Part shown: piece after piece, positions 1,970 through 37,021 of the stretch
Layout: every line of letters begins with the position of its first letter
Numbering within the stretch: the first letter of the stretch is position 1
Made by a program: the position numbers and the translations under genes
Notes under the pieces: generated by a model
Seen by the model: only the letters and a program-made list of their open reading frames with translations
Databases searched by the model: none
What the model was told of the DNA's origin: nothing
From: Candidatus Undinarchaeota archaeon
GTDB lineage: Archaea; SpSt-1190; JASMDC01
Reading direction: 5' to 3'
Assembly (NCBI GenBank): GCA_964519305.1
Contig: CAZFHY010000023.1
Coordinates: 1-40,240 of the forward strand
Length of the DNA: 40,240 bases

Positions 1970-1972
1970 ACT

Positions 1973-3613
1973 ATGTACACCGACCCCCACCCGGATACTA
2001 AACTGGTATTGATACTGTCAATATGCATGGTCCTCGCAATCCTCATTGGCGGGTGCATGTCGAGCCCAAAGGTTGAAGAACCTCCGAAAGCGACAGCTGG
2101 ACCTTATCAGGAAGGACCGCCCACCGGGACAGGAACATCCACCGGTATACCATCGATGACACCTACTCCTTCCCCCACGTCTCAACCAACACTGACACCC
2201 ATACCGACACAGTTACCCACGCCCGTGCCAACTTCAATTCCAACTGTGACACCCGTGCCTAGTGAGTCTCCCGAAGAAGCTTCCTTAGCAGGACAGGATC
2301 CGTTCGACCTTCTCAGCAAGAGGAACACCCTCGCAATCGTGCTCGTTCTCGATGTCTCCGGTAGCATGAAGGGGAATAAGATCGAACAGATGAAAGAGGC
2401 CACGATAAAACTGTTAAACGTCATTCCTGAGTACAATAAAGTCTCACTCATACCGTATGCGACGTCAGCTAGAGTGGAAAAAAGCCTCAGCACACTTGCG
2501 GATAAAGAAGGACTTATCAAGAAGGTCGAAATGCTTCGACCAGAGGATAGCACGAATATTGGAGATGGGATGGAGGGCGCGTTCCTACAACTATCCAGAG
2601 CTCAGGATGAAGATACTCCGTTTATTCTTCTATTGACCGACGGTGTGATAACCGCGGGACGTAGCGCTCTTGAAGTGATAGAACTCGCTCGTGGTCATCC
2701 TGACATCAGCATCTCAACCGTCGCTGTTGGGGGGGATGCTGATAAGAAATTCCTTCGTGAACTGGCGCAGGTAGGCCGAGGGCGTTTCTATGATGTCGCC
2801 GAAGCTGAAGAACTCATCGCCACATTTACTAAGGAAATGGGTGAGATGCTATCCCTTGAGGAGCTGGTCACCTACGTCTACCTACTCAATGTTCGGGAGA
2901 CGCTCGATACAATTGACAAGGACGCCACCGCCGAGAGCATCATGAAGGGTTTCGACGGTGACCACTTCGTGATAGACGACGGGAGCACCTCTCTCTTCTT
3001 CAATCTGATCTGTATCAATGCCCTCAAACGACTGGGCCACCTGGACGACCTCCCCAAAGACACGTTTATTGCTCTCGTGAAGTCGCGCCGACAGGATGAT
3101 GGCGGGTATGCGGAGGTCAGTCAGACCGCCTCGTCTGTGCTGGCCACTTCATCGGCAATCCGCATCCTTAATTACCTCGATACACCCATAGAGAACGAGG
3201 ACGCTCCGATTGAGTTCCTAATCGCTCATTGGACAGGACGCGGTTTCAAGAACACGGCGACCGATATCGAGAGTATATTCGCCACGAACATGGCCATTGA
3301 GGCCCTGTACGAGCTCGATCGCGTCAATGAGACCGTCCTGACTGGTTCTTCGGACTTCGTCATCTCGCAACAGACAGATCTAGGGGGTTTCGCCGACTTC
3401 GCAGGTGGGAATCCCCACTCTTGGTATTCTCGAATGGGAATTGAGGTGCTCCGGCGAGCCGATCGTGTCGGAGAAATCGATGCAGAGTCCCTAAAGACCT
3501 ATCTAGAAACTCTCAAGAACGACGATGGGTACTCCTATTCACCTGATGGGGAGACGACAGTCGGTGCGACCTACGACGCGGAACTCACTCTGAAGTCACT
3601 GAGCGCAGTCTAG
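1973..3613 (+). CDS. Lipoprotein paralog: Pro/Thr linker, VWA domain, prenyltransferase-like alpha/alpha barrel
   Basis: Hydrophobic N-terminus with lipobox LIGGC. MIDAS DVSGSM/LLTDG. Collinear similarity to the upstream ORF. GGAGGT just upstream. Confidence 0.85.
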   Translation: MYTDPHPDTKLVLILSICMVLAILIGGCMSSPKVEEPPKATAGPYQEGPPTGTGTSTGIPSMTPTPSPTSQPTLTPIPTQLPTPVPTSIPTVTPVPSESPEEASLAGQDPFDLLSKRNTLAIVLVLDVSGSMKGNKIEQMKEATIKLLNVIPEYNKVSLIPYATSARVEKSLSTLADKEGLIKKVEMLRPEDSTNIGDGMEGAFLQLSRAQDEDTPFILLLTDGVITAGRSALEVIELARGHPDISISTVAVGGDADKKFLRELAQVGRGRFYDVAEAEELIATFTKEMGEMLSLEELVTYVYLLNVRETLDTIDKDATAESIMKGFDGDHFVIDDGSTSLFFNLICINALKRLGHLDDLPKDTFIALVKSRRQDDGGYAEVSQTASSVLATSSAIRILNYLDTPIENEDAPIEFLIAHWTGRGFKNTATDIESIFATNMAIEALYELDRVNETVLTGSSDFVISQQTDLGGFADFAGGNPHSWYSRMGIEVLRRADRVGEIDAESLKTYLETLKNDDGYSYSPDGETTVGATYDAELTLKSLSAV

Positions 3614-7692: not shown

Positions 7693-10137
7693 CTACCTAG
7701 TCAGCATGCCCGCGACGAGCTCTCCGGCAGCGAGCGTGTCCTCCTTCTCGGCTCCCGCGACCACGACGGCGTTACCGACAGCGTACACAGTGCCACGTCC
7801 ACCCCGGTTGAGCCTGTACCAGCTCGCCTCGGACGGGAGGGAGGCCACCTGGGCATTGACCACGGGGCCGCCGATGAGGATGTAGGACTTGCCGTCGTCG
7901 AGGGACCCCACCTGGTCATCGTACGCGACCCGGACGGACCCGCCCGCGGATTCGAGCGCGGTCTTGATCCCATTGGCGACCTGCTCGTCGGCTTCATGGG
8001 CACGGCGGCCGTACACGATGACGACCTCCTGGTCCCTGACACGAGCACTGATGCGGTCGTTGGTGAGCCACATGTCCTCGACCTGGGAGAGGGTCTGTCC
8101 GATGGCCCTGCGCCGGTTCTGGAGCAGCTGGGAGCGGTCCAGGTTACGGATGGCGTAGGTAGTCGTGGTGGCGGTGTTCTGGGAGAGCTGAGAGCCCATG
8201 TCCTTCTTCTCTGCACGCTGGCGCATATCGGCGACGGCGGACGCCTGGGAGAGGACCTCGCTGTTCCATGCGACACCAAGGCTCTGGAGTATCGCGTGCT
8301 GGGCCTCCACCTCCCTGAGCACCTCTTCGGTTGTGTTGAAGTTCCCGGCCATCATCTCCTCCTCGGCGTCGTACGTGAGGTCGGCGGTCTTGTCCAGTTC
8401 CGCCTGCCCGACCACCCAGAGGTTCTCGCGGATCGCGTTATGGTCCTCTGTAGCAGAGACTACGATGGACGGGAGGATCACGACCTGTGTGGACCCATCG
8501 GCAGCTACATAGGTGAGCCTTGACTCGCCAACGATCTCGACAGACTCGCCGGCCTCGAGGGCGGGCACCGTCACCTCGACCTCGAAGCTCTTGGTCTGGC
8601 CGTCCCTGAGAGCGTGGAGGGGAACGGTGAACGCGCCATCGCTGACATCGCCCTCGGTACCGTAGACCCCGGCGAGCGTCACGCGTTCCCCGGCGGCCGC
8701 GGCGAGCATGGCGTCGGTCGCCACCGATGATGCTGCACCGGTGAACTCGCTCTCGAACTCGGCGAGGAACGATGCGTCCTGGTTGTAGTAGTAGTTGCCC
8801 CCGCTGGCCTCGGCGATGCGCCTGAGGAGCCGGGCGTTCACGTCCCTACCGAACCCGATGGTGGACACGACGACCCCCAGTGCCTCGGCACGTCCGCCAA
8901 GTGCGGCAATGGAATTCTCGTTGGTGATACCTGCAGTGGGCATACCGTCAGTGAGCACGAACACGACCTTGAGGGAATCGTGCGAGGACTCAGAGAGATC
9001 GTCCAGAGCGAGCGAGAGGCCGTCGTAGAGGTTCGTCCCCCCGCCGGAAGTGATCATACTGACGAGACCGCGCAGCTCGTTCCTGCGGCCATTGAGGCGG
9101 TATGCCTGGGCAGCGAACGTGACGATCGACACCGAGTCGATGTCCCCTAGATTGTCGAGAGCGTAGTACGCGGCGCGCTTCGCGTCCTCGATCTTCTGGC
9201 CGTCCATGCTCCCCGAGGTGTCCATGACGAGCACCACGTCCATGGGGAGCCGGACGATCTCCTGGGCGGTCGCCTGTGCGGTCACCTCATAGAGGAGGTA
9301 CACAGAGGATTCCTCGCCCGCAGGGACGTACGCTGTGCTGGGGTCGATGCGCATGAGGACATCCTCGCGCCCCGAACCGGTGGGGATGAGCTCGTAACGG
9401 ACGTTGAGGTCATCCCAAGGACGGACGTCCTTGAGCGTGAGGGAGAGTGATCCCTCGCCGATGGTCGCACCGGCGGGCGCCTCGATTACGTGGACCCTTT
9501 CGTCCTCGCTCCCGGAGAGCACATTAACGAAGAAACCGACCTCGCCCACGGGCCCATGCCAGAACCGTGCAGCGGACAACTGGAACGATGCGGAGTAGGT
9601 CTCCAGGGCAGGTCCCATCTCGGGCGACAGTTCCCTCGAGTAGGAGATCGTGAACCGCTTGGACCCATATGCCTCTAATGATATGTCCCATAGGTAAAGT
9701 GTCGCGCCCTCATGGTCGATTAGGTTCGAACAGGATACAAGATTGGACGATGTGATGGTCGCTGACCGGCACCTGCCTGCCTGTATTAGTTGCTTGACTA
9801 CGTCCCGTACGAACGCCGACGACTCCGCGCCCGGAACGATTTCCACATTACCTATCTCGATAGCGCTCCCGTCAGGGAGCTCCTCGGCGACGTTGAGCCA
9901 GTCGGCCGTGGTCCCCAAGGGGAAGAAAAGACGTACCGTTACCGGTGTACCCTCCTGGTTCACCACTTCGAAGGCGATCTTTCCGTCCTCGGTCCCGCCC
10001 TGTAATGTAAGGAGGATATGTCCATAGGTCATGGTCACCGCGCTCGTAGTATCTGCAGGGAGGAGACCCGGCAGGCCCGCTACAGACCCCATGATAATGA
10101 GGATGGCGAGCAGTCCCGTGTTCAAAGCATGTCGCAT
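7693..10137 (-). CDS. Secreted VWA (YfbK-like) protein with C-terminal archaeal S-layer-type domain
   Basis: Signal peptide. DVVLVMDTSGSM, GGTNL and VLTDG MIDAS motifs. C-terminal VVIVYGRRA..D..VA and YILIGGPVVN..VAGAEKEDT match the S-layer C-terminal signature. Confidence 0.8.
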   Translation of the reverse strand: MRHALNTGLLAILIIMGSVAGLPGLLPADTTSAVTMTYGHILLTLQGGTEDGKIAFEVVNQEGTPVTVRLFFPLGTTADWLNVAEELPDGSAIEIGNVEIVPGAESSAFVRDVVKQLIQAGRCRSATITSSNLVSCSNLIDHEGATLYLWDISLEAYGSKRFTISYSRELSPEMGPALETYSASFQLSAARFWHGPVGEVGFFVNVLSGSEDERVHVIEAPAGATIGEGSLSLTLKDVRPWDDLNVRYELIPTGSGREDVLMRIDPSTAYVPAGEESSVYLLYEVTAQATAQEIVRLPMDVVLVMDTSGSMDGQKIEDAKRAAYYALDNLGDIDSVSIVTFAAQAYRLNGRRNELRGLVSMITSGGGTNLYDGLSLALDDLSESSHDSLKVVFVLTDGMPTAGITNENSIAALGGRAEALGVVVSTIGFGRDVNARLLRRIAEASGGNYYYNQDASFLAEFESEFTGAASSVATDAMLAAAAGERVTLAGVYGTEGDVSDGAFTVPLHALRDGQTKSFEVEVTVPALEAGESVEIVGESRLTYVAADGSTQVVILPSIVVSATEDHNAIRENLWVVGQAELDKTADLTYDAEEEMMAGNFNTTEEVLREVEAQHAILQSLGVAWNSEVLSQASAVADMRQRAEKKDMGSQLSQNTATTTTYAIRNLDRSQLLQNRRRAIGQTLSQVEDMWLTNDRISARVRDQEVVIVYGRRAHEADEQVANGIKTALESAGGSVRVAYDDQVGSLDDGKSYILIGGPVVNAQVASLPSEASWYRLNRGGRGTVYAVGNAVVVAGAEKEDTLAAGELVAGMLTR

Positions 10138-23249: not shown

Positions 23250-24965
23250 GTGGTACCGCTGGTTCCGAAGAAGGACGATAAGTTGTACGAGGAGGAGGGC
23301 GAGGACCTTGTGGAGGTCGTCGAGGAGGAGGCTTCGTACACCGGTGTACGTGAGCTCGACCTCATGCTCGGGGGTGGATTCCCGAAGGGTGCAGTCGTGC
23401 TCCTGTCCGGCTCGTCCGGTAGCGGTAAGACCATCCTGTCCTCCCAGTGGCTCTTCGCCGGAGTGAAGCATGGAGAGAAGGGTCTGTACTTCACCGTCAC
23501 GGAGCCCCTTTTCAAGGCGGTAGAGAACCTCGAGGCCATGGGGTTCTACGACCGGGAGGCGCTGGAGAGCGAGCATATCAGGATCGTGGACCTGCGGGAC
23601 GTGATTACCGACGACGGCAAGGACGGGTTCGACCAGGACAAGGTCATCGATTTCATCGAAAAGCAGGTCAAATCCCACAACGCCAAGCGCTTGTGCATCG
23701 ACTCCATCACCGCCATCGCCTACCAGCTCCATGACAAGGCCCAGATCCGACGGTTCATCTTCCGCCTCGGTACAGTCCTGGCAAGTCTCGGGTGTACCAC
23801 AATCCTAACCAGCGAGGTCACCGAGAGCGGCCGGTACTCCGTGTACGGTGTCGAGGAGTTCATCTCCGACGCCATCGTTCGGATGGACCAGGTGAAGGTG
23901 CGGGGCGAGCTCCAGCGTGTGATGGGCATGGTCAAGGTCAGGGGCCGAAGCTACCGGGCCGAGGAGCTCTTCTTCAGGATCACCGACAACGGTATCACGG
24001 CCTTCCCGCAGCTGAGGACCAAGCTCGAATACGGTTCCTCCACCGAGCGTCACTCCACGGGCGTTCCCGAGCTGGACGAGATGCTCATGGGGGGTATGCT
24101 AGGGGGCGCGTCAACACTCGTCGCCGGCCCCACGGGTACGGGGAAGACACTATTGGGCATGCACTTCATCATGGAAGGGCTACGCCACGGCGAGACATGC
24201 CTGTTCGTCGGGTTCGAGGAGAGCAGAGAGCAGTTCCTTCGCAACGCCAAGGGGTTCGGCTGGGACATGGAGTGGTACGAGCGCGAGGGGATGCTGACCA
24301 TCCGGTGCGCGTACCCCGGGGAGAAGCTCCCCGAGGAGCATCTGCACGATATCAAGCACCTCGTGGAGAAGAACGATGTCAAGCGGTGCGTGGTCGACTC
24401 GCTCTCATCGGTGTCCAACTCGTACACCAGTGAGGTGTTCGATGGCTTCGCCCAGCGGCTCAACGGCTATCTGAAGGCGCAGAGGTTGACCACCCTCTTC
24501 ACGATGGCCACCCAATCCCTCATCGGCCAGACAACGCTCACGGAGAGCAACCTCTCCACCATGACCGACAACATCGTCATGCTGCGGTACGTGGAGATGG
24601 AGGGTGAGCTCAGGCTCATGCTCAACATCCTCAAGGTGCGCGGTAGCGCCCACAGTAAGGGATTGCGGCGGTACGACATCACCAATGAGGGCATGCAGAT
24701 CGGCCCGAGCTTTGCTGGATACGAGGGCGTGCTCACCGGTGTCGGCCGGAAGGTCTCCGATTCCGTCGAGGAGCGCGTCGAGGAGGAGTTCCGCAGATTC
24801 ATCGGACCCATGGCCGGGACCGTGTTCACCGACCTGAAGACCCGCGGCCTTACCAAGGAGCACATCGACGAGTACCTCAAGGACCTCACCCGGCAGGGCA
24901 TCCTCAAGAAGGACGATGCTACACGGTTCAAGGAGCGTATCCTCGCCATCATCGACGGCGCTTAA
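23250..24965 (+). CDS. kaiC: Double-domain KaiC-family ATPase/autokinase with C-terminal helical extension
   Basis: Two RecA domains (GSSGSGKT, GPTGTGKT), FEES, VKVRG/LKVRG arginine fingers. LSTMTDNIVMLRYVE aligns with the KaiC S431/T432 segment. CTTATATT at 23215. Confidence 0.9.
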   Translation: MVPLVPKKDDKLYEEEGEDLVEVVEEEASYTGVRELDLMLGGGFPKGAVVLLSGSSGSGKTILSSQWLFAGVKHGEKGLYFTVTEPLFKAVENLEAMGFYDREALESEHIRIVDLRDVITDDGKDGFDQDKVIDFIEKQVKSHNAKRLCIDSITAIAYQLHDKAQIRRFIFRLGTVLASLGCTTILTSEVTESGRYSVYGVEEFISDAIVRMDQVKVRGELQRVMGMVKVRGRSYRAEELFFRITDNGITAFPQLRTKLEYGSSTERHSTGVPELDEMLMGGMLGGASTLVAGPTGTGKTLLGMHFIMEGLRHGETCLFVGFEESREQFLRNAKGFGWDMEWYEREGMLTIRCAYPGEKLPEEHLHDIKHLVEKNDVKRCVVDSLSSVSNSYTSEVFDGFAQRLNGYLKAQRLTTLFTMATQSLIGQTTLTESNLSTMTDNIVMLRYVEMEGELRLMLNILKVRGSAHSKGLRRYDITNEGMQIGPSFAGYEGVLTGVGRKVSDSVEERVEEEFRRFIGPMAGTVFTDLKTRGLTKEHIDEYLKDLTRQGILKKDDATRFKERILAIIDGA

Positions 24966-24975
24966 TGGGGTAACA

Positions 24976-26922
24976 ATGGAGCTCAAGAAACGGCTGCCAG
25001 CGGTCCTGCTCTTGGTGTCCGTCATTCCCATGATGCTCATCGGTTTCATCACCCTCGACATCGCCGAACGCCAGGCGATCGGGCTGGCCGCGCAGAAGCT
25101 GGACTCGATAGCCTCGATCCAGGAGGCGCGGCTCGAAGAGGTCATGGACCGGAACCTAGAGCGGTTACGACTGGTCTCCAGCCGGACCCAGCTGCGCATC
25201 AGCTTGGAGCGGTACGCCCGCGAGGGTGGCGAGGAGGACCTGCTGAAGATGCGACGCATCTTGGTCGACGCCAAGGGCTCCATCCCTGATTTCGAAGAGG
25301 TCTCTGTGCTCGGTCTCGACGGGACCGTGGTCGCCTCGAGCGATCCCGCGTCCGAGGCGACCTCTCCCCTGGATGCCCGACATCGTGAGATGGCACTGGT
25401 CGGAGGGTTCATGGACATCGTCACCGACGAGCAGGGAACCTCCCGCCTCCGCCTCGCAGGACCCCTCGTGCTCGAGAACAGGACCATCGGCATCGCCCAC
25501 ATAACCGCGGGGATGACCAGCATCGCGGCCGTTGTCCAGGACCGGACCGGGCTGGAAGGGGATGGTGAGACCCTGCTCGCCATGCGCGGCCCCGCGGGCG
25601 AGGCCCTGTTCATCACGCCGATTCGGTCGGGGGCAATTCCCAACTCGGTGCCCGCCCAGCTCACGGACCTTCCCATCATGCAGGCCTTGGCGGGTACTGA
25701 GAGCACCTATACCAGCAAGGTCAATTACGCGGGCCTGAGCGTGCTCGCGGCGACGCGACATGTCGATGCGACCGGCTGGGGGCTCGTCGTACAGATAGAC
25801 GTGGCCGACGTGATCCAACCCGTCGACGATGTCCGGACAAAGGCGACCATCGCGCTGTTCATCTTCATGATGCCCCTCATCGCTATCGCGTTGATGACCG
25901 CCCACTCGATATCCCAGCCGCTAGTGAAGCTGCGGACCACCCTTGAGGACATCAGCATGGGGAACATGGAGACGACCATCGATCCCAAGCTCACGGGCTC
26001 ACGGGACGAGATCGGTGAGCTGGCCCGTGCCTTCGAGCGGATGATAGTGAGCCTCAAGCTGGCCATGAAGCTCACGGCACCCGAGCTGAAGCGGGAGAGC
26101 GACGAGCTGAGGCAGGTACTCAGGGAGAAGGAAGAAGCGGAGCGGGCGCTCAGGGAGAGCGAGGAGCGGTTCAAGACGCTCGTCCACAACGTCCCGGGGA
26201 CCGTCTACCGCTGCAGGAACGACGCCGACTGGTCGATGCACTTTATCAGCGACGAGGTTGAGGAACTGGTCGGGTACCCGGCCTCCGACTTCATCGACAA
26301 CGCTGAAAGGAGCTTCACCAGCGTCATCCACCCCGACGACCGGGAGATGGTCGATGCTGCTGTCCAGGAGGGTGTCGGGAAGAAACGGCCCTATATCATC
26401 GAGTACCGCGTCATCCATAAGGACGGGAGCGTCAAGTGGGTGTACGAGAAGGGGCAGGGAATCTTCGGGGAGGACGACAGGTTCCTGTGGCTCGACGGAG
26501 CTGTCTTCGACATCACCGAGCGCAAGGAGGCGGAGCGGGCGCTCAGGGAGAGCGAATCGCTGCTCAAGGCGACGCAGGAGATATCGCATGTGGGCGGTTG
26601 GACGTTCGATGTCGCCACAAGCGAGGTGACATGGACCGAAGAAGTCTATCGCATCCACGAGATGGAGCCCGATCCCGCCATCGACCACGTCGCCAAGAGC
26701 TCGAAGTGCTACCCGCCCGCCGACCGGGAGCGCGTCATGGCCGCTTTCACGCGCGCCATCGAGGAAGGTGTGCCCTACGATCTGGAGTGCCGGTTCATCA
26801 GCGTCAAGGGACGGAAGATGTGGGTGCGTACCACCGCGCGTGCCGAGAAGAAGAACGGGAAGGTCGTGCGCGTGATCGGCAACATCATGGACATCACCGA
26901 CCGGAAGCAGGCAGATGAGTAG
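24976..26922 (+). CDS. Membrane sensor: TM-Cache-TM-HAMP-PAS-PAS, no output domain
   Basis: Two TMs flank a Cache-like region (TGWGLVVQID). HAMP (SRDEIGELARAFERM). Two PAS/PAC units ending DITERK and DITDRK. No HisKA, HATPase or GGDEF motif. Confidence 0.85.
   Translation: MELKKRLPAVLLLVSVIPMMLIGFITLDIAERQAIGLAAQKLDSIASIQEARLEEVMDRNLERLRLVSSRTQLRISLERYAREGGEEDLLKMRRILVDAKGSIPDFEEVSVLGLDGTVVASSDPASEATSPLDARHREMALVGGFMDIVTDEQGTSRLRLAGPLVLENRTIGIAHITAGMTSIAAVVQDRTGLEGDGETLLAMRGPAGEALFITPIRSGAIPNSVPAQLTDLPIMQALAGTESTYTSKVNYAGLSVLAATRHVDATGWGLVVQIDVADVIQPVDDVRTKATIALFIFMMPLIAIALMTAHSISQPLVKLRTTLEDISMGNMETTIDPKLTGSRDEIGELARAFERMIVSLKLAMKLTAPELKRESDELRQVLREKEEAERALRESEERFKTLVHNVPGTVYRCRNDADWSMHFISDEVEELVGYPASDFIDNAERSFTSVIHPDDREMVDAAVQEGVGKKRPYIIEYRVIHKDGSVKWVYEKGQGIFGEDDRFLWLDGAVFDITERKEAERALRESESLLKATQEISHVGGWTFDVATSEVTWTEEVYRIHEMEPDPAIDHVAKSSKCYPPADRERVMAAFTRAIEEGVPYDLECRFISVKGRKMWVRTTARAEKKNGKVVRVIGNIMDITDRKQADE
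26137..26555 (+). repeat. 26-bp exact direct repeat flanking the first PAS domain
   Basis: GCGGAGCGGGCGCTCAGGGAGAGCGA at 26137-26162 and 26530-26555, 393 bp apart and in frame. Confidence 0.9.
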
Positions 26923-27051
26923 CTCAATGAGAACGAGGCGCACGTGCTCGACCTCCTCGACAACATGAGCGAGTCCATGCAGAGCACGGTGTCATCCGCA
27001 TCATTGACGAAACGGCTATAAAGGAAAAGGGTGCATCATGAGGTGGGCATC

Positions 27052-27666
27052 ATGAGCGACGAGGGGACCGATGTGACGTCCGGTGACAAGGAAGCTATCA
27101 TTGAGCCCCTGGTCCGCACTATGAATGATCACCCCGCTGGCGCCGTCGTGATGCTGGAACTACCGACCGAGGCCTACTTCGATGCGAACCTTGCCACTGT
27201 GGAGGGCCTTCTGAAACTCGGTTTCGAGGGTGTCTACGTCAGTGTTAACCGTCCCTTCCCGAACCTCGTGGAACTGTTCGGCCAGCGGGGGATCGACCTC
27301 AACAAGCTCTTGTTCATCGACATAGCGACCTTGCTAGCCGACACGGAGCGGACCGACGATCCGCGGTGCATCCACGTATCACCGGAGATCGACATCGACG
27401 AGCTGGTCCGGGCGATCTACACATCGCTCGAGCGCTTATCGGGCCCGAAACGATTCGTGTTCATCGACTCCCTCACCACGATCACGCTCTATAAACCTCT
27501 GTCCGAGACACTGAGGTTCTCTGAGTTCCTGCTCAGGACCATCCGCAAACATCACGATATCCAGAACATCAGCCTCGTGGTCAACGTCGCCGCCGACCTG
27601 GCCCAGAAACGGTTCATCCAGGACGTAGCCCTGAAGGTGGACGAGGTCATCAAGGTGAGCTTATGA
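27052..27666 (+). CDS. Degenerate single-domain KaiC/RecA-fold protein without Walker A
   Basis: GVYVSVNRP, LLFID and FVFIDSLTT (Walker-B-like) but no GxxGxGKT. GAGGTG RBS. Confidence 0.75.
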   Translation: MSDEGTDVTSGDKEAIIEPLVRTMNDHPAGAVVMLELPTEAYFDANLATVEGLLKLGFEGVYVSVNRPFPNLVELFGQRGIDLNKLLFIDIATLLADTERTDDPRCIHVSPEIDIDELVRAIYTSLERLSGPKRFVFIDSLTTITLYKPLSETLRFSEFLLRTIRKHHDIQNISLVVNVAADLAQKRFIQDVALKVDEVIKVSL

Positions 27667-28214
27667 TCGACTCCATCGTCGGTACGGCGATCGAGGAACT
27701 GCCCGAGGGGGGGATCGTTCTCCTCGAGACGGGCGAGGGGACCGAGCCAGAAGTGGGCGTGCAGGCCATGAGACAGCTGCTTAACCAGGGGTACAGCGGC
27801 ATGGTGCTCTCGGCGGGCCAGCCGCTGGATAAGCTGATCGAGCGCTGCAAGGACGAGGACTTCGACTGCGAGCGGCTCCTCATCCTCGACTGTGTGGGCG
27901 GGGGCGCGAAATGCCCAAAGGAGGCATCCGACCAGATAGTCCGTATCGATGACATCACCGACCTCACGCTCATCGTCGTGTCCATCATCAGCTCGATCAA
28001 GAAGCTACCGGCCAAGAAGTTCCTGCTCATCGACGACATCTCGGCCATGCTGGAGAAGAACCATCCGCTCTTCTTCGCGCGGTTCATGCACATAATCCTC
28101 ACGAACATACGCAACTACAACATGAGCGGCGTGCTCGTCTCCAAGAAGGACGGGATAAACAAGATGGTGCGGGCCGAGATCGCCCAGCTGTGCGACCGGG
28201 TCATCGAGATCTGA
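27663..28214 (+). CDS. Second degenerate KaiC/RecA-fold protein
   Basis: ATGA overlap with the upstream gene. LLILDCV, FLLIDDIS and QLCDRVIEI. No intact P-loop. Confidence 0.75.
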   Translation: MIDSIVGTAIEELPEGGIVLLETGEGTEPEVGVQAMRQLLNQGYSGMVLSAGQPLDKLIERCKDEDFDCERLLILDCVGGGAKCPKEASDQIVRIDDITDLTLIVVSIISSIKKLPAKKFLLIDDISAMLEKNHPLFFARFMHIILTNIRNYNMSGVLVSKKDGINKMVRAEIAQLCDRVIEI

Positions 28215-29780: not shown

Positions 29781-30416
29781 GTGGTTCTCCATCTCGAGTG
29801 GCACAAGGTCCTCAGCGCCACGGACCTTGCCCGGCACTTCTCCTGCTCGACGCGGACCATCTTCAGGAAGCTCGAGGACAGCGGCTACCTCACCAGCTAC
29901 AACAAGAACGGTGAGATGCTCACGTTCCCGGACACCCCCGAGTTCGACGAGAACGGCCTCTGGGAGTACCGGGGCGCCAGATTCTCCATGTGGAGGAACC
30001 TCGGGCCCACCGTCCGCGCCCTTGTCGACGGGAGCGAACAGGGCCTGACCGCCTATGAGCTGGGGCGCCTCCTCTCCCACCCCAACGTCCACCACCACCT
30101 CCTCGAGTGCATCAGGAAGGGCCATCTCGTTCGTACCAGGCTACAGGGCTGCTCTGTCTACTACAGCGCGGACATCCTCAGGAGGCGAGAGCAGGAAGCT
30201 GCACGCTGTAGAAAGCAGCCGCCACCCCCCGTCCCAGACCTGACGACCACCGAGCTCGTCTGGCTCCTCCGAGCCGTGATCAGGTGCAACAATATCCCGT
30301 ACAAGGGGGTCACAGCTGCTCTTGAGGCCGACGGAAGGAAGGTGAGCGAACAGGCCGTACGATGGCTCGTCGAGGGGTGTCCGGGCGACGGTGCGGCACC
30401 CACCACCCCCGCTTAG
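29781..30416 (+). CDS. Multi-wHTH hypothetical protein, possibly mobile-element-associated or a relic
   Basis: HTH SATDLARHFSCSTRTIFRKL, then GYLTSYNKNG..FDENGLW..FS and a second wHTH (GLTAYELGRLL..VYYSAD). Start uncertain. Confidence 0.6.
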   Translation: MVLHLEWHKVLSATDLARHFSCSTRTIFRKLEDSGYLTSYNKNGEMLTFPDTPEFDENGLWEYRGARFSMWRNLGPTVRALVDGSEQGLTAYELGRLLSHPNVHHHLLECIRKGHLVRTRLQGCSVYYSADILRRREQEAARCRKQPPPPVPDLTTTELVWLLRAVIRCNNIPYKGVTAALEADGRKVSEQAVRWLVEGCPGDGAAPTTPA

Positions 30417-30475
30417 GAGCACGTCCCCACCGCCCGTCCGTGCATTTTTTAAAGCTCTCCACGATGATGGATAGT

Positions 30476-31042
30476 ATGGGGGTTAAGCTCACTCGTGAGC
30501 AGGGACGTCTGCTCTATCTCATCCATCTCCTCACCCGCACCGATAGCGAGGACGAGGTGGTCTGGGTCAAGGACCTGCCGCTCAAGGCGCTGCTCTACCA
30601 GGGCATCGTCCACGGGGTGTTCGACTGGGACTATGCTCCGCAGTCGGTGCTCTTCCACGGGCGGCGCAAGTTCATCAACGTCACCCAGGAGGGGGAGGAC
30701 GATATCAACGACCTGCGGGAGATCGGGTTCGTGGACAAGCTCCGTCTTTCCACCTCGGAGCACACCCATATCAACGCCTACCGACTCAGCAAAGAGGGAC
30801 TTGAGGCCGTCGAGGCCATCCTCGAGGACGATCAGGAAGCCGTGGAGGAACTTATCATCTGCCCCCAATGCAAGAAGGCCCGCGATGTCTACGTGGAGGC
30901 GACAGAGGCCTACTTCTTCTGCAAGGATTGCAACAAGAAGACCCCCATCGACCTGCTGGGCATCGAGGACGTCCCCTACATAACAGAGCCGTTCATGCCC
31001 CGGATCGCGCTGCTGGAGGAGGTGGTCCGCCATGGAGATTAA
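30476..31042 (+). CDS. Hypothetical winged-helix-like protein with C-terminal Zn ribbon
   Basis: DINDLREIGFV..AYRLSKEG is a wHTH wing pattern. CPQC..CKDC. TTTTAAA about 23 nt before ATG 30476. Confidence 0.75.
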   Translation: MGVKLTREQGRLLYLIHLLTRTDSEDEVVWVKDLPLKALLYQGIVHGVFDWDYAPQSVLFHGRRKFINVTQEGEDDINDLREIGFVDKLRLSTSEHTHINAYRLSKEGLEAVEAILEDDQEAVEELIICPQCKKARDVYVEATEAYFFCKDCNKKTPIDLLGIEDVPYITEPFMPRIALLEEVVRHGD

Positions 31043-32783
31043 GGACGAGCTCGAGGAGATCGTCTTCCTCAAGAACCCCCGCATCATGATCTGTGAGTGG
31101 ATCCCCTTCAACAAGAACCAGATAATGACGATCAACGATGACCTGGAGACCACCAAGCGCATCAAGTCCAACCTCTTCACATCGCGCATCGACACGACGC
31201 CCCACACGGCGACCTTCACGACCAATCCGGTCTTCACCGAGGTAAAGATCAAGGACTACGACGTCTCCCGGTTCGTACGCTTCGACGCGCAGGTGTTCTA
31301 TCCCGAGGACGTTGTCCAGATCGAGCGGTTCGGGGTCAACATCGACTTCTCGGGCCGTGTCATCTACGGCCTGGCGCTCAAGGATATCGACGGGTGCAAG
31401 GAGGTCCAGTCCCTGGACAAGATGTCTAGGGTCATCTCCGATGTCGTGCTCGACTCCTCCGTGATGGTGGACACCCTCCTGTCGGTGTTCCAGAAGCGCC
31501 TGCTCGACGTGGTCTTCTTCGATGATTCGAAGGAGCGGGACAAGTTCACCGTCATCATCGGTGACGAGATCACCCCGCACTTCGACGACAACGACAAGTA
31601 CCTGGACAAGGAGAAGCATGAGAACGAGCTCAATCAGGTGCTGGAGGCGGTGCACCGGGTGGTCACCCTCTCGCCCAAGGAGAAGGTGTTTGTGGGAAGT
31701 CACGGCATCATCCTTGTCAGCCCCGACTCTACTAAATACGAGGAGATCGTGTCCGTGGCCGCGTTCCTTTACTCGCTCCAGATCCTCCAGCGGAACATCT
31801 CCACCCGGATGTGGATCCTCTGGGACCAGATCCGCGAGACCAGAGAGAAGATACTTGCTGTGTCCGAGTCGGACACCGAGGGCATCTCGCACATCCAGGA
31901 GATGCTCTCCCAGATATCGGGGACCATCGTGCTCCTGGAAGAGATCACCAAGTACATGTCGCACTCGACGGCCTACATCCGCCGGGAGTGGAACGCCCTG
32001 CGCAAGAAGCTTGCGGATGACGAGTGCTGCGCGAACCTCGTGGAGGCGCTGGAGATCGATAAGCAGGCCCACACCCGCGGTGAGATCATCACCGATATCA
32101 AGATGGGCATATCCGGGCTCCAGAACGAGATATCGGGGCTCCGCGACATCGCCGGCACCATCGCGGAGAAGCAGATGAAGAAGGTGAATGAGGCGCTGCA
32201 GGAGAACATCGCCGAGATGCAGGAGATGACGCGGGCGTCGGACAGGACGGGTTCCGCGGTCGAGGTGCTCGAGATAATCCTGGCCGGATCGATATCCTTC
32301 GACATCGTCAACACCTTCTCCGGCGAGTACACCAATGAGCCCCTGGCGTTATGGGCGGGCGAACATCCCTCGCTCTGGTTCCTCATCATCCTGATGGTCT
32401 GGGGTGTGATCGGGTGGTTGCTTTACCGTATCATGGACCAGCTCCAGGCAGCATCGGAGAAGGACCTGCGGATTACGATGCGGTTCGACCACAAGGTGGA
32501 CACCGACCGGCTGAAGGCCTATATGGCAACCAAGGAGGTGCTCGTCTCGGAGGAGACCGCTGATGCCAACACGCGGCTCAAGCGAGTGTCATGGAAGGAG
32601 GATATCCTCGACCACGAGGCGTCGCTCCAGATATCCTTCGAGGCCGCCAGCGGCATCCTGCGCACCTTCAGCGCGGACGTGCCCTCGCCAGGTGTGCTCA
32701 CGGCACGCGACGTAAAAGGTTACCTGGTGGACCAGCTGAAGAAAGCTGAGGTCATAACCGAGGACGAACCGGTGTCGATGTAG
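31032..32783 (+). CDS. CorA/ZntB-like-architecture membrane protein lacking the GMN motif
   Basis: Soluble N-terminus, long amphipathic/coiled-coil helices, then two closely spaced TM segments and a C-terminal domain. 11-nt overlap with the upstream gene and a GGAGGTG RBS. The CDS is secure; the fold call is inference. Confidence 0.6.
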   Translation: MEIKDELEEIVFLKNPRIMICEWIPFNKNQIMTINDDLETTKRIKSNLFTSRIDTTPHTATFTTNPVFTEVKIKDYDVSRFVRFDAQVFYPEDVVQIERFGVNIDFSGRVIYGLALKDIDGCKEVQSLDKMSRVISDVVLDSSVMVDTLLSVFQKRLLDVVFFDDSKERDKFTVIIGDEITPHFDDNDKYLDKEKHENELNQVLEAVHRVVTLSPKEKVFVGSHGIILVSPDSTKYEEIVSVAAFLYSLQILQRNISTRMWILWDQIRETREKILAVSESDTEGISHIQEMLSQISGTIVLLEEITKYMSHSTAYIRREWNALRKKLADDECCANLVEALEIDKQAHTRGEIITDIKMGISGLQNEISGLRDIAGTIAEKQMKKVNEALQENIAEMQEMTRASDRTGSAVEVLEIILAGSISFDIVNTFSGEYTNEPLALWAGEHPSLWFLIILMVWGVIGWLLYRIMDQLQAASEKDLRITMRFDHKVDTDRLKAYMATKEVLVSEETADANTRLKRVSWKEDILDHEASLQISFEAASGILRTFSADVPSPGVLTARDVKGYLVDQLKKAEVITEDEPVSM

Positions 32784-32794
32784 GACAGGTTCTC

Positions 32795-32834
32795 AGAGAA
32801 AGAGAGGGAAGGGGCCCCGTACTATCGGGGCCCC
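32795..32834 (-). terminator. Stem-loop with pyrimidine tail between convergent genes
   Basis: GGGGCCCCG-TACTAT-CGGGGCCCC (32811-32834), followed on the minus strand by TTCCCTCTCTTTCTCT. Confidence 0.65.
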
Positions 32835-32855: not shown

Positions 32856-33674
32856 TTACTGCTCGGGCTTCTCCTCGGCGCCTACGTCGCGGTTGTACCG
32901 GAAGAAGTACATGAGCTCAAGTTCGTTGGACTCGTGACGCCAGGTCACGAGCTCGTCGAAGGTATCGTTGCGCTCCTTCTTGACCACCTTGATGGAACCC
33001 TTCAGGTCGTCGCGCTTGGCCTTGTATCCACCGAGCTCGGCGGCGACGTCCCTTATGGCGCCCTCGGTCCGAGCGATGTCGTGGATGATGGCCTGGTAAC
33101 CCTCGCTGCCCTTGGGGTCGCGGGTGCGCTCGTACTTGTGGCGGGCGCTGCTGTAGAGGTTGAGGTCGTGCTCCAGCCCGTACAGCTCCTTGGCGGTTGT
33201 CCTGATGTGGCCCTTGATCTCCTTGAGCTCCTTCTTTGAGGCGCAGAGCCTGTCAGTGAGCTCGTCGTAGAGCTTCTCACCGGACTCGATCCCGTCGGTG
33301 ACGAAGCCGTACCGCTTCTCGATGGTGCCACCGAGACGGTCCTCGACATCGCCGTACTTGCGGGCGACGGTATCGTTGAGAACGCTCTTCATCTCGCGCT
33401 CCTCCTTGGAGAGGTGGATGTAGCCAACGAAGTGCTTCCAGGCCCGTCCGAGCATGGTGTCGGCGTCGTTGCGGATCATTGCCTTGAGCGAGCGTTCGGT
33501 CCTGCACTCAGCGGAGTCGTAGTTACCGGCGATATCATAGATCTCGCCGGAGGTGACGTTAGCAGCGTCCTTACCGGAGAGCTCGACGACGTCCCCATAG
33601 GGCTCCTTCATCTTCAGGTCGGTGTAAGCATCGACAACACGTTCAAGGTCAGGGTTAGCTTCAATATCGATCAT
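32856..33674 (-). CDS. Hypothetical coiled-coil protein
   Basis: ATG 33674 with GAGGGGA upstream. Charged heptad-rich C-terminal half. Confidence 0.7.
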   Translation of the reverse strand: MIDIEANPDLERVVDAYTDLKMKEPYGDVVELSGKDAANVTSGEIYDIAGNYDSAECRTERSLKAMIRNDADTMLGRAWKHFVGYIHLSKEEREMKSVLNDTVARKYGDVEDRLGGTIEKRYGFVTDGIESGEKLYDELTDRLCASKKELKEIKGHIRTTAKELYGLEHDLNLYSSARHKYERTRDPKGSEGYQAIIHDIARTEGAIRDVAAELGGYKAKRDDLKGSIKVVKKERNDTFDELVTWRHESNELELMYFFRYNRDVGAEEKPEQ

Positions 33675-33798
33675 GTGAATCCCTCTGTCCCGTGTGTGAT
33701 TAGCCTTTCCAGTATTTAATGGCTTTTCCGGAATTAACCGGAAAATAGCGGACGGACCGCAATCTAGAGCCATTCACACCTGACCGATGACAGCAGGA

Positions 33799-34323
33799 CT
33801 ACGCCCAGTCATTGATCAAGTTCTCAGCCTCGTCCACGCTCTCTCCGAGCTCCCCCTGGTCGCTCTCGTCCTGGACCTGCTCGTCGTCACCGAGCTCCAT
33901 CTGGGCGGCCAGCTCGTTGTCCTCAGGCTCGGGCGTGGGCTCAGGTGTCGGCGTGGGGGCCTCGGTCGGCGCGGGCTCTTCCGTAGGGACAGGTGCCTCG
34001 GTCGGCTCCGGTGTTGCTGTGGGTGCTTCAGTGGGCGCAGGCACTTCGGTGGGTGCTGGCGCCTCCGTCGGCTCCGGTGTCGCAGCAGGTGCTTCAGTGG
34101 GCGCAGGCTCCTCGGTAGGTTCCGGTGCTTTCGTGGGCTCGGGAGTGACCGCTGGCGCTTCGGTCGCTACCGGCGCATCGGTCGGGGCCGGTGCCTTAGT
34201 GGGAGCGGCCGTTGGTGCCTTCGTGGGCTGCTTCCCGGGCGGCGGAGAGCCCTTCTTCTGGCATCCCGCTGCAAAGAGCACGAGCACGATGAGCATCGCC
34301 GCGATGAGATGATCCCGGCCCAT
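33799..34323 (-). CDS. Lipoprotein with PTEAP repeats and acidic C-terminus
   Basis: Lipobox AAGC. ATG 1 nt after the upstream stop, with a GGAGGTGG RBS. Confidence 0.8.
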   Translation of the reverse strand: MGRDHLIAAMLIVLVLFAAGCQKKGSPPPGKQPTKAPTAAPTKAPAPTDAPVATEAPAVTPEPTKAPEPTEEPAPTEAPAATPEPTEAPAPTEVPAPTEAPTATPEPTEAPVPTEEPAPTEAPTPTPEPTPEPEDNELAAQMELGDDEQVQDESDQGELGESVDEAENLINDWA

Positions 34324-34324
34324 T

Positions 34325-37021
34325 CTAGGCCACCTCCTCCATCTCGATCTCCTCCACGACGATCTGCTCGGCGTCCTCCTCCACATCAAGGTCCAGGGTG
34401 CCGCCGGCGGCCTTGACGCCACGGGCGATCTCCCGGAGGAGGGTCTCTGCGGACCGCAGCTCGGCCTTGGCCTCGTTCACGAGCTTCTTGCCGTTGTTGG
34501 CGCTCTCGAGCGCGGCGTCGAGCTGACCTTCGTCCTTTCGCAGCCGGCGCGCCTCCTCGATGTGGCGCTGGGCGAGCGCGAACTTGTCCCTGGCCGTGCT
34601 CACGTGGAGGCTGAACGTCTCCACCTTCAGGTCGAGGGAGGACACGTCCGTGCCCGTCGCCTCAAGGTCGGCCAGGACCGTGTCCAACCGCCGCTCCAGG
34701 TCGTCCGCCCGGGCGAGCACGTCCTGGACGTGGGCCACGGCGATGCTCTGAAGGAAGATTGCGCCCTTCTTATGGACGCGCTTACCGATAGTGACGATCT
34801 CCAGGCCTGCCGTTTTTAACTCGTCCTTGGTGGTCGCGTCGGCAACAGCGGCCTTGGCGGTCTCCAGCGCGGCGACCTCGGTATCGATGGCGTCGAGGAT
34901 GTCGGTCACGTCCTCCTCGGCCAGGTCGTCGGCGGCCTCCACCTTGCTCCGCGTCTTCTCGAGTTGGTGGATGCCGTTATCGGCCAGCGCCGTGAGGAAC
35001 GTACGAGCGTGCTCGATGGCCTTCTCCCGTGCCTCGACGCACTCGGGGGTGTCCTTGCCGGCGCACTCCTTCTCCAGACGCTTGTACCGCTCGAAGTCGG
35101 CCTTGGCCGTGGCGAGGCGTGCACGGGCGTTCAGGAACCGGCTCCGCGCCGCCAGGTAGGCCTTCTTGGCACGTTCCTGTATCGCAGCGGTCACCAGCCG
35201 CTTGCGGAACAGCTCCTTGCGGACCACCTTCCTGACACGGAACTTCGCAAGCAGTTCGGTGGCGTCCTCGATACCCTTCTCCAGCAGCTTCTTCTGGCGG
35301 GCCCGGTCCAGGCGGAGGAACACCTCTCGCTTGTCCTCGGGGAGCTTCTCCAGGAGGTCGGCCACCGATGAATGGCGCTCCATAAAGCGATCGATGGCAC
35401 GCTGACGCACCTCAGGGATGCCCTGGGGGATGAGGTTGGCCAGCTTGGGATTGAGGGCTATGGCGACGCCCACGGCCGCTAAGCGCTTGTCGCAGGCGCC
35501 CAGTGGGTCGGGGTGGGCCTCGGCCACCAGCTTGTCCACGCACTCGCGCTCCTGCATGATCGCGGTCTTGCACGCGAGCACGGGATTGTCCACATCGGTC
35601 TTTGTGACCATGAACCTGAAGCAGGCATCCATACGCTGCTTGACCAGGAGCAGGGACCCGATGCCGTAGGTCTTGACCGTGTCGGTGAGGAACGCCACAT
35701 AGTCCACGCAGTGCGTGACCGTGCCATCGGGGCCGAGGTCAGCGTAGGTGCGGGGGAGCTTTAGCCGCACATCCTTGACGCAGGTATGGACCAGCCCGAC
35801 CTCGAGCACTTCGGCCAGGGAGGTGTCCTCCTCCAATATCTCCGGATGCTTGATGACGGTCTTGCCGGCCAGGGACGCGAGGAAGAAGCAGAGGCCCTTG
35901 TCCTTCTTACCGGCCTTCGTGAACTCGTCCACGCACTGCTTCTCTTTCCAGATGAGGCGCTCGCATACCTTGATCGGGTTCTGGATGTCGAGACCGTTCT
36001 CCTCGATGCCCCGGGCCATCCCCTTGAGGCATTCGCCCATCTGCCAGTGGACGAAGTTGACGCCGGCCTGTCCATGGTCCGTCTTGATCCGCTCGAGGAA
36101 TCCGAGGTACTCGACGCACTCCTCACCGAGGGCCGTGTCCCCCAGCTGGTCGGCGATCGTGGGCAGGTGCTTCTTCACGTCGTTGATGCACTTCGCCCTG
36201 ATGGCCGGTACGAGGAGATGGGCCAGGTCGCACTCCTTGAGCGGCTGGGCCACTCCTGCGGCGACCTTCTCGTCCACACACGCCTTCTCCTCGATGAGCA
36301 GGTCCTTGCAGAATATGATCGGGTTGGTGACGTTGGTGTTCTGCTTGACGAACGCAAGGCAGGCCACGATGCGTATCTGTATTTGCGGGAGCGCGCCGAC
36401 GCCGTAGTCGTCGATCGCCCCGGCGATGAAGTCAACGTACTCTGTACACTCCTCTTCCAGTCCTTCCTCACCGATGTCGGCATAGGTGTCGGCGAAATTC
36501 TTGCGGGAGTTGGTCATGCAGTCCTCGAGGAGCTGGAGGTTCACCACATCATCGATCTTCGTCGTCTCCGAGAGGTGCTCGGGATGCTTGGTGAGTATCT
36601 TACTGGCATGTGTCGTCAGCAGGAGGCAGGTGAGTGGATCCTTGCCAGCGGCCTTCCGCTCGTCTCTGCATTCGAGCTCCTGGGTGATGAGGTTCCGACA
36701 GATGGCGATGGGATCGTCCAGGTCCGCGTCGCTCTCCACGGTGCCGTTGGCGATGGCCGTCCGAGCGTCGCGCACGAGCTTGAGGCAGCCTTTTGTCTGT
36801 GGCCACACGATGACGTTGATTCCCGGCTCCTTCTGGGCCATCTCGTTCAGGTAGGCGACGAAATCAGTGCACACCTCGTCAACGTCGAGGCCCGCCGGAT
36901 CGGCGCCGATGGCATTCCTGCAGTCGGTGTCCCATACATTATCGAGGATGCCCGCCTGCACGCTCGTTATCAGCAGCGCGGCGAGCACGAACACTAGTAG
37001 CGCACGTCGTAAGTTCACCAT
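34325..37021 (-). CDS. Secreted protein: four 6-Cys helical repeats plus long coiled-coil region
   Basis: Signal peptide ending VQA. Repeated (N/D)P(I/V)xxC-x9-C motif. Helical C-terminal half. Confidence 0.85.
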   Translation of the reverse strand: MVNLRRALLVFVLAALLITSVQAGILDNVWDTDCRNAIGADPAGLDVDEVCTDFVAYLNEMAQKEPGINVIVWPQTKGCLKLVRDARTAIANGTVESDADLDDPIAICRNLITQELECRDERKAAGKDPLTCLLLTTHASKILTKHPEHLSETTKIDDVVNLQLLEDCMTNSRKNFADTYADIGEEGLEEECTEYVDFIAGAIDDYGVGALPQIQIRIVACLAFVKQNTNVTNPIIFCKDLLIEEKACVDEKVAAGVAQPLKECDLAHLLVPAIRAKCINDVKKHLPTIADQLGDTALGEECVEYLGFLERIKTDHGQAGVNFVHWQMGECLKGMARGIEENGLDIQNPIKVCERLIWKEKQCVDEFTKAGKKDKGLCFFLASLAGKTVIKHPEILEEDTSLAEVLEVGLVHTCVKDVRLKLPRTYADLGPDGTVTHCVDYVAFLTDTVKTYGIGSLLLVKQRMDACFRFMVTKTDVDNPVLACKTAIMQERECVDKLVAEAHPDPLGACDKRLAAVGVAIALNPKLANLIPQGIPEVRQRAIDRFMERHSSVADLLEKLPEDKREVFLRLDRARQKKLLEKGIEDATELLAKFRVRKVVRKELFRKRLVTAAIQERAKKAYLAARSRFLNARARLATAKADFERYKRLEKECAGKDTPECVEAREKAIEHARTFLTALADNGIHQLEKTRSKVEAADDLAEEDVTDILDAIDTEVAALETAKAAVADATTKDELKTAGLEIVTIGKRVHKKGAIFLQSIAVAHVQDVLARADDLERRLDTVLADLEATGTDVSSLDLKVETFSLHVSTARDKFALAQRHIEEARRLRKDEGQLDAALESANNGKKLVNEAKAELRSAETLLREIARGVKAAGGTLDLDVEEDAEQIVVEEIEMEEVA

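Follow-up and report, generated by a model that had tools for sequence, protein, structure and literature searches.

Two overlapping genes lie at positions 30476-32783 of the DNA analysed here, a stretch of 40,240 nucleotides from Candidatus Undinarchaeota archaeon (GCA_964519305.1, contig CAZFHY010000023.1, positions 1 to 40,240 of the forward strand) that is called the window below. Gene 1 encodes a small protein with a winged helix and a zinc ribbon, and gene 2 encodes a membrane protein with a predicted CorA-like fold that does not have the GMN signature. A first-pass annotation of the window had described them as a self-contained two-gene unit with an 11-nt overlap (31032-31042); both open reading frames (ORFs) were indeed found at these positions, and every sequence motif quoted in that annotation for genes 1 and 2 was found in its place. 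The genes and the signals around them are as follows.

30476-31042, plus strand: gene 1, 188 amino acids (aa), small subunit, PF27231 "MJ1567" family (19 labelled relatives)
31032-32783, plus strand: gene 2, 583 aa, membrane subunit, PF27230 "MJ1566_N" family
30445-30453, plus strand: TATA-like TTTTTTAAA, read from the sequence, 11-23 nt 5' of the candidate ATGs of gene 1
31015-31025, plus strand: Shine-Dalgarno-like GGAGGAGGTGG, within the 3' end of gene 1, 6 nt before the ATG of gene 2
32811-32834, no strand assigned: perfect 9-bp GC-rich hairpin GGGGCCCCG-TACTAT-CGGGGCCCC, between gene 2 and the convergent gene at 32856-33773 (minus strand)

The TATA box postulated 5' of gene 1 could thus be read as the TATA-like run at 30445-30453. 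Three in-frame ATGs (30464, 30467 and 30476) follow this run and are candidate starts of gene 1. Transcription from the putative TATA-like element would give a leaderless or near-leaderless mRNA, and translation of gene 2 is likely coupled to that of gene 1. The hairpin may mark the end of the unit. A scan for intrinsic terminators returned no site and did not call the hairpin, which is not followed by a T-run, and a scan for sigma-70 promoters also returned no site; the models behind both scans are inapplicable to archaea. The 20 metagenome runs listed were all marine, seawater or estuary DNA, with no RNA run among them.

Catalogue status of the two families

A search with gene 1 yielded 19 relatives with E values from 4.7e-114 to 7.5e-28. 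For gene 2, a word-indexed search gave 3 matches out of 7996 scored, since coiled-coil words dominated, and an exhaustive HMMER search was used instead. It retrieved 528 representative clusters at E ≤ 1e-3, 320 at E ≤ 1e-10 and 162 at E ≤ 1e-30. With these counts and E values, the pair is far beyond chance ORFs.

In precomputed annotation, all 19 gene 1 relatives, one of them 93% identical, carry the label PF27231.1, and gene 2's own cluster and its two relatives carry PF27230.1. A protein atlas names these families "MJ1567" and "MJ1566_N", respectively (Pfam 38.1). Therefore, the pair is already catalogued, as uncharacterised families. Gene order and two-protein organisation are the same in the window and in the catalogued families, and no structural difference was found; the window genes are members. 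From the consecutive numbering only, MJ1566 and MJ1567 are presumably adjacent in Methanocaldococcus jannaschii. No paper on PF27230/PF27231 or MJ1566/MJ1567 was found in the full-text literature, with supplements outside the scope of that search. The earlier designation of the pair as undescribed thus holds for the literature but not for Pfam, which lists both families as uncharacterised entries and not as a known transporter. Scans of Pfam and NCBIfam, in a copy without the PF27230 and PF27231 models, gave only sub-threshold matches to zinc ribbons and coiled coils. The name "WD repeat-containing protein 35", which is attached to many family members, was rejected as an artefact carried over from a merged gene model of Globisporangium splendens. 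In this protein (P0122, 1507 aa), residues 3-766 form genuine WDR35 propellers and TPR, and the gene 1 and gene 2 parts come after them.

The two genes stay together across lineages

In a scan with one genome per species, relatives of gene 1 were found at 10 loci. The archaeal ones are in a near-identical metagenome-assembled genome (MAG), in Helarchaeota, Borrarchaeum, Sigynarchaeum and Bathyarchaeota and in two unclassified archaeal MAGs; the bacterial ones are in two Planctomycetota MAGs and one Deferrimicrobium MAG. The closest named relative, with 95% amino-acid identity, comes from a marine Candidatus Undinarchaeales MAG. A gene 2 relative was detected by tblastn directly downstream of the gene 1 relative at 9 of the 10 loci, and the tenth contig ends inside gene 1. 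At all eight other loci with separate genes, including a paralogous locus of the source genome, the junction ranges from a 14-nt overlap to a 20-nt gap. That paralogous locus (contig 17, ~84425-86823) holds a second, diverged pair, 47% and 40% identical to genes 1 and 2, with a 2-nt gap; the same-genus genome also has two copies of the pair.

A conserved third gene was not found at these loci: the flanks vary by lineage, are mostly housekeeping genes, and none of them recurs beyond close relatives. The window's own flanking genes have counterparts in the same-genus genome alone; the paralogous locus does not have them. The proposed self-contained unit is therefore borne out as a conserved coupling of two genes, which is found at 9 of 10 loci and, moreover, in the fused chains described below, and which shares no flanking genes beyond close relatives.

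Within the phylum of the source genome, 2 of 17 genomes have the pair and the other 15 (0.6-1.2 Mb) have none. The source genome itself has 3.63 Mb and is 99.8% complete, and its same-genus relative has 3.8 Mb; either the source genome is a large-genome outlier in a small-genome lineage or its placement is doubtful. In a sample of 151 Asgard genomes, strong matches (E ≤ 2.4e-41) were confined to 24; each of these has a single matching place, which in genome G079 is spread over two short contigs. Weak matches in nine further Asgard genomes (E 2.8e-6 to 9.3e-4, query residues 240-516) were discarded as coiled-coil or chance similarity and not counted as members.

The small subunit has an acidic helix where a recognition helix is expected

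For fold analysis, we used a model of P0031, a 791-aa fused bacterial homologue that is 41% identical to gene 1 and 34% identical to gene 2; its elements were mapped to the window proteins through a 135-row alignment of fused and split forms. The model (predicted local distance difference test [pLDDT] 93.0, predicted template-modelling score [pTM] 0.85) consists of a winged helix with a four-cysteine zinc ribbon, an alpha/beta domain with long helices, a stalk continuing into the first transmembrane helix (TM1), a second transmembrane helix (TM2) and a Bet v 1/START-like C-terminal domain. The motifs of gene 1 are FDWDYAP (residues 49-55), INVTQEGEDDINDLRE (66-81), CPQC...CKDC (129-132 and 149-152) and IEDVPY (163-168), and its parts are as follows.

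30482-30841, plus strand: winged-helix domain, PadR/MarR/TubR-like in the model, gene 1 residues 3-122
30677-30721, plus strand: invariant acidic helix N68-x-x-QEGEDDxNDLRE82, directly before the wing hairpin; helix 71-82 in the model
30860-30931, plus strand: four-cysteine zinc ribbon, C129, C132, C149 and C152; strands 137-141 and 144-148 in the model
30962-31021, plus strand: C-terminal tail IEDVPYITEPFMPRIALL, residues 163-182, predicted docking segment onto gene 2

In a structure search with the homologue model, residues 3-122 matched the winged helices of PadR, MarR and TubR with scores of 9.2-10.2, root mean square deviations (rmsd) of 2.3-3.1 Å and 77-89 aligned residues. At the sequence level, no PadR, MarR or helix-turn-helix Pfam family matched gene 1 at E ≤ 1, the Pfam matches to its zinc ribbon (E 0.006-0.06) all stayed under the cut-off, and a search of the gene 1 profile against the sequences in the PDB gave nothing but zinc-ribbon noise. 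Residues N68, Q71, E72, G73, E74, D75, D76, N78, D79, L80, R81 and E82 are invariant in 20 of 20 gene 1 sequences; L89, L91-S-T93, the four cysteines, E164-D-V166 and Y168 are likewise invariant in 20 relatives.

Going by the order of the secondary-structure elements, the acidic helix 71-82 would take the position of the recognition helix. Because an invariant acidic run sits where this helix would be, DNA binding by gene 1 is unlikely, and the small subunit is most likely not a DNA-binding protein. The overall isoelectric point (pI) is not conserved in the family (4.7 to 9.2 in the nine members computed), and the only conserved basic surface residues are R11 and R81. The first-pass annotation had suggested that gene 1 senses nucleic acids or metals; with QEGEDDxNDLRE invariant in the helix before the wing, nucleic-acid sensing appears unlikely. 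Apart from this helix, gene 1 differs from PadR/MarR regulators by the extra zinc ribbon, the docking tail, the fusion to a membrane protein in many lineages and the lack of a Pfam match.

The membrane subunit resembles CorA in its predicted fold but lacks the GMN motif

Gene 2 contains the motifs EWIPFNKNQI (residues 22-31) and SGEY (430-433), and a Kyte-Doolittle scan revealed two hydrophobic segments (~405-431 and ~445-470) that are followed by a C-terminal domain of ~110 residues. Its parts are as follows.

31032-31727, plus strand: cytoplasmic alpha/beta domain, gene 2 residues 1-232
32055-32324, plus strand: continuous helix of ~90 residues (stalk and TM1), residues 342-431, corresponding to H547-636 of the model, ending at G431
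32319-32330, plus strand: SGEY, residues 430-433, at the position of YGMN in CorA
32364-32441, plus strand: TM2, residues ~445-470 by hydropathy; helix 448-474 in the model
32454-32753, plus strand: Bet v 1/PR-10/START-like (helix-grip) domain, predicted to be cytoplasmic, residues 475-574

Most of the near-invariant polar residues of the family are in residues 1-232: E22, P25, N29, Q96, E98, G108, D129, R133, D137, D141, Q154, R169, K171, E199, Q202, G222 and G225 are near-invariant in this domain. The loop between TM1 and TM2 is acidic and free of K and R, and the flanks of both transmembrane helices on the opposite side are basic, which fits an N-in/C-in topology. G431 was present in 105 of 108 family sequences, P446 in 92 of 111 and W457 in 90 of 112, the latter two in TM2. 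Position 433, filled in 102 sequences, is W in 59, Y in 24, F in 6, T in 4 and S in 4, and N is not among the five commonest residues; the family motif replacing GMN is (T/S)G(E/D)(W/Y). Close to the outer end of TM1, position 424 is D in 47 and E in 20 of 115 sequences, and position 427 is D in 82 of 115.

CorA-type channels are defined by the GMN filter, and in CorA structures the stalk helix is continuous with TM1. A Foldseek search of the P0031 model against the PDB returned CorA in all 21 of the 21 rows shown, at ranks 1 to 47, with a best E value of 3.8e-4 and a probability of 1.00. When model residues 313-591 (gene 2 residues 105-386) were compared with 48,161 structures, the cytosolic domain of E. 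coli CorA (5n77_A) ranked first, with a score of 11.9, an rmsd of 1.8 Å and 134 aligned residues. Extension to residues 313-684, including the transmembrane hairpin, gave 8.8, ~16 Å and 192 residues with the full-length CorA of T. maritima. For the helical part of gene 2, the values were 7.5, 2.1 Å and 118 residues with ZntB and 7.4, 14.4 Å and 211 residues with Mrs2. The first-pass proposal of a CorA-like protein without GMN but with an additional C-terminal domain is thus what the homologue model predicts for the gene 2 family.

Sequence profiles were compared by hhalign with 16 CorAs of the same phylum, and probabilities of 24.6-25.2% (P 8e-4, score 36.8-36.9) were obtained; the controls scored 15.3 (reversed) and 22.6 (best of 20 column shuffles). 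Before realignment, the alignment is colinear to the C terminus and lays SGEY on YGMN. Homology of gene 2 to CorA is suggested by this comparison, and only suggested, because the profile-profile probability is ~25% and few columns survive realignment.

Like CorA, ZntB and Mrs2 (PF01544), gene 2 is thus predicted to have a cytoplasmic alpha/beta domain, a stalk helix continuous with TM1, a C-terminal transmembrane hairpin, an N-in/C-in topology and an acidic outer loop. In contrast to them, it has (T/S)G(E/D)(W/Y) and no GMN/GxN, a Bet v 1-like C-domain of ~100 residues and an obligate partner with a winged helix-turn-helix and a zinc ribbon, and it does not match PF01544. By sequence, the gene 2 family is therefore not a member of PF01544/CorA. 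The source genome has a canonical CorA elsewhere (173.8 bits to PF01544), and CorA is present in 15 of 17 genomes of the phylum.

The C-domain (residues 475-574) matched proteins of the Bet v 1/PR-10 type in the structure search with the homologue model (scores 8.3-7.4, rmsd 3.1-3.5 Å, 93-97 aligned residues). It differs from the Bet v 1/PR-10/START (SRPBCC) proteins in being shorter (~100 residues), in following directly on a transmembrane helix and in having no match to a sequence family.

The tail of gene 1 is predicted to dock onto gene 2

Prediction of the complex of gene 1 and gene 2 with both alignments gave an interface score (ipSAE) of 0.61 (0.61, 0.67 and 0.61 in three runs), whereas the best of three controls reached 0.00. 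Of 80 solved complexes, 58 score at this level or above, as do 2 of 110 mismatched pairs; these counts hold only roughly for the custom alignments used here. The runs agreed in at least 77% of the contacts, and the pLDDT of the partner was at least 73. On the side of gene 1, the confident interface comprises the tail residues 165-180 and 182; on the side of gene 2, it comprises strands 17-19, 74-86 and 95-119 and helices 130-138, 234-242 and 315-323, and the near-invariant residues Q96, E98, F100, G101, G113, R133 and D137 are part of it. This prediction supports binding of gene 1 to gene 2 through its C-terminal tail. The predicted contact carries no information on gating.

Fused forms and their phylogeny

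Many matches of gene 2 are 790-1200 aa long, with the alignment beginning near residue 210-250, and a hidden Markov model (HMM) built from the gene 1 alignment located the gene 1 domain N-terminal to the gene 2 part in these long homologues. Among 226 homologues examined, 88 had both parts in the same order and nearly full length, 28 had the gene 1 part only and 84 had the gene 2 part only, the last group including many fragments. Both PF27231 and PF27230 were found in 35 of 43 longer gene 1 relatives. Where gene 1 is fused, its tail (residues 163-182) continues as the linker. Fused forms are present in the oomycetes Globisporangium, Pythium, Aphanomyces (five species) and Achlya, in MMETSP and EukProt transcriptomes, including that of the green alga Crustomastix stigmatica, and in bacteria (Wallbacteria and an unclassified bacterium). 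Among the gene 2-like clusters of the protein atlas, one is 50% Eukaryota (most commonly Oomycota) and one 85% Eukaryota (most commonly Chlorophyta). A fusion in stramenopiles, which the first-pass annotation had suggested with reservation, was indeed found in the oomycete proteins and, in addition, in Crustomastix.

Other arrangements were seen as well. In P0196, P0198, P0205, P0209, P0211 and P0213 (389-394 aa) and in P0189-P0195 (904-1031 aa), the match to the gene 1 HMM extends over ~280-400 residues; we read these as two tandem gene 1-like domains, alone or before a gene 2 part. Several stand-alone tandem forms were named "PadR family transcriptional regulator" by one source. In Aphanomyces astaci, the gene models P0222 and P0224 have a GNAT acetyltransferase domain in front of that of gene 1, an arrangement that may be a real fusion or a merged gene model.

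A FastTree phylogeny was calculated from 127 gene 2-like parts that span at least 430 query positions, after nine redundant cluster members had been dropped. In this unrooted tree, a branch with 100% support separates 27 rows, 26 of which are split forms, from the other 100. All 6 labelled archaea and the Deferrimicrobium MAG are on the 27-row side; the 100-row side has the fused bacterial forms and a 79-row clade with all 12 labelled eukaryotes. An IQ-TREE analysis (LG+C20, 43 rows) agrees, with a support of 98 for the fused side and 99 for the eukaryote-containing clade, and in it a split form of the Sigynarchaeum type is the neighbour of the fused side (support 90). Split rows occur inside the fused side (e.g., P0029 beside Wallbacteria) and one fused row (P0095) inside the split side; thus, fusion or fission took place more than once, or some of the rows are fragments. 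An approximately unbiased (AU) test in which the eukaryotes plus three Asgard rows were grouped against four fused bacterial rows did not discriminate (difference in log-likelihood 1.32, p 0.44). The taxon labels of MAGs on these trees may be wrong, and the trees give neither the root nor the direction of fusion. A system shared by archaea and eukaryotes had been envisaged in the first-pass annotation; both domains do carry the family, but so do bacteria, and the eukaryotic forms group with the fused bacterial ones.

Other genes in the window

The context of the pair is archaeal, with KaiC, MEDS, S-layer-like and VWA proteins. Three large VWA-domain proteins are encoded at 5-3613 (plus strand) and 7693-10137 (minus strand); a prenyltransferase-like alpha-alpha toroid domain is present in two of them, and the C terminus of one gives an S-layer-like match. 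At 23250-28214 (plus strand), a double-domain KaiC (571 aa), a Cache/HAMP/PAS sensor (668 aa) and two short KaiC-like ORFs (211 and 183 aa) follow each other. Just upstream of gene 1, at 29781-30416 (plus strand), there is a 211-aa ORF with no family match, whose only conserved counterpart (75% identity) is in the same-genus genome; the paralogous locus lacks it. Downstream, at 33799-37021 (minus strand), a PT/EAP-repeat-rich protein (207 aa) adjoins a cysteine-rich repeat protein (898 aa), neither of which has a Pfam match.

Discussion

On our best reading, the pair encodes an oligomeric, regulated membrane channel or sensor that is neither a Mg2+-transporting CorA nor a DNA-binding regulator. 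More specifically, we propose a two-subunit membrane complex of the MJ1567/MJ1566 family, with a CorA-like large subunit and a small subunit docked by its tail, that by analogy forms a ring-shaped channel, and we give this proposal an even chance of being right. In such a complex, the tail of gene 1 (EDVxY...) would dock onto the beta-sheet and helices of the N-domain of gene 2. By analogy to CorA, the protomers might assemble into a ring, probably a pentamer, with TM1 lining the central path; the acidic residues near the outer end of TM1 could favour cations other than hydrated Mg2+; and the cytoplasmic parts, i.e., the small subunit and the START-like domain, might determine whether the path is open or closed, with a metal or a hydrophobic ligand as the signal.

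Several observations weigh against this proposal. The Foldseek TM-scores to CorA are low, and alignments to full-length CorA have rmsd values of ~16-20 Å. The confident model is that of a bacterial homologue only 34% identical to gene 2, and the single-sequence model of the window's own gene 2 has a pLDDT of 43.5. PF01544 did not match gene 2 at E ≤ 1, and a search of the gene 2 profile against PDB sequences at E ≤ 10 gave 39 matches with designed coiled coils on top and not a single CorA. The hhalign probability is ~25%, and 73 helical columns are left once the alignment is realigned. In the predicted complex, the body of gene 1 is not confidently placed, and the confident interface, which excludes the acidic helix and the zinc ribbon, gives no account of their role. 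Finally, the asparagine that confers selectivity on CorA is missing, and the pore is thus an analogy only.

If CorA-like proteins of this type do not conduct ions, the pair might instead be anchored in the membrane to sense or carry a hydrophobic ligand (a lipid, isoprenoid, quinone or similar), with the Bet v 1/START-like domain as the binding site and the CorA-like part as an oligomeric scaffold or anchor; we consider this rather unlikely, although it deserves more weight than the explanations that follow. The PadR-like shape of the small protein could point to a membrane-tethered transcription switch, in which this protein is held by the sensor and released on a signal. However, QEGEDDxNDLRE precedes the wing in all 20 sequences, neither PadR nor MarR models in Pfam match, the pI is anything between 4.7 and 9.2 with no conserved basic surface residue besides R11 and R81, and in bacteria and eukaryotes the protein is covalently fused to the membrane protein, so release would need proteolysis. 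We therefore regard such a switch as improbable.

Divergent CorA-family membrane effectors that are activated by SAM-AMP have been reported (PMC10600005, PMC12255297). This precedent and the tightly coupled arrangement of the two genes would be in line with a pore that serves in defence. However, none of the defence families in PADLOC-DB 2.0 matched either protein at E ≤ 1, the neighbours are lineage-specific and mostly housekeeping genes with flanks common to the same-genus genome only, strong matches in Asgard archaea are at one place per genome in 24 of 151 genomes (on two short contigs in G079), and oomycetes and green algae have the gene as a single chain; a role in defence is thus very improbable. 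The CorA effectors of type III CRISPR systems are similar to our pair insofar as they are reported to be divergent CorA-family proteins that act as ligand-controlled effectors and not as housekeeping Mg2+ channels (PMC10600005); the pair in the window differs by having no CRISPR or defence context and by the presence of its family in eukaryotes. A conventional Mg2+/Co2+ transporter of the CorA type, altered in nothing but its sequence, would agree with the CorA-like fold but is hardly credible: the whole family lacks GxN, the PF01544 profile fails to find gene 2 but gives 173.8 bits with the genome's own CorA, the pair occurs in just 2 of the 17 genomes of the phylum as against 15 with a CorA, and both the partner and the C-domain are extra.

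Returning to the two-subunit complex, a bolder version of it would see the family as an ancient offshoot of the CorA superfamily, distinct from the rest and spread over all three domains of life: a ligand-gated cation channel with winged-helix/zinc-ribbon and START-like gating. Its gate subunit would not bind DNA and would be a protein of its own in archaea but part of a single chain in bacteria and protists. We put this forward tentatively and think it more probably wrong than right. If it is true, one gating device is in use from Asgard archaea to oomycetes and green algae.

The family is found, by its Pfam name, in Methanocaldococcus jannaschii and also in Asgard archaea, some bacteria and protists, among them oomycetes that infect plants or fish. 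Its occurrence in split and in fused form is a natural test of the subunit interaction, and at its small size the pair lends itself to expression, structure determination and flux measurements. More than 500 representative clusters keep the CorA shape yet drop the GMN filter and add an obligate partner and a START-like domain, which suggests a new use of the scaffold, with another ion or in signalling.

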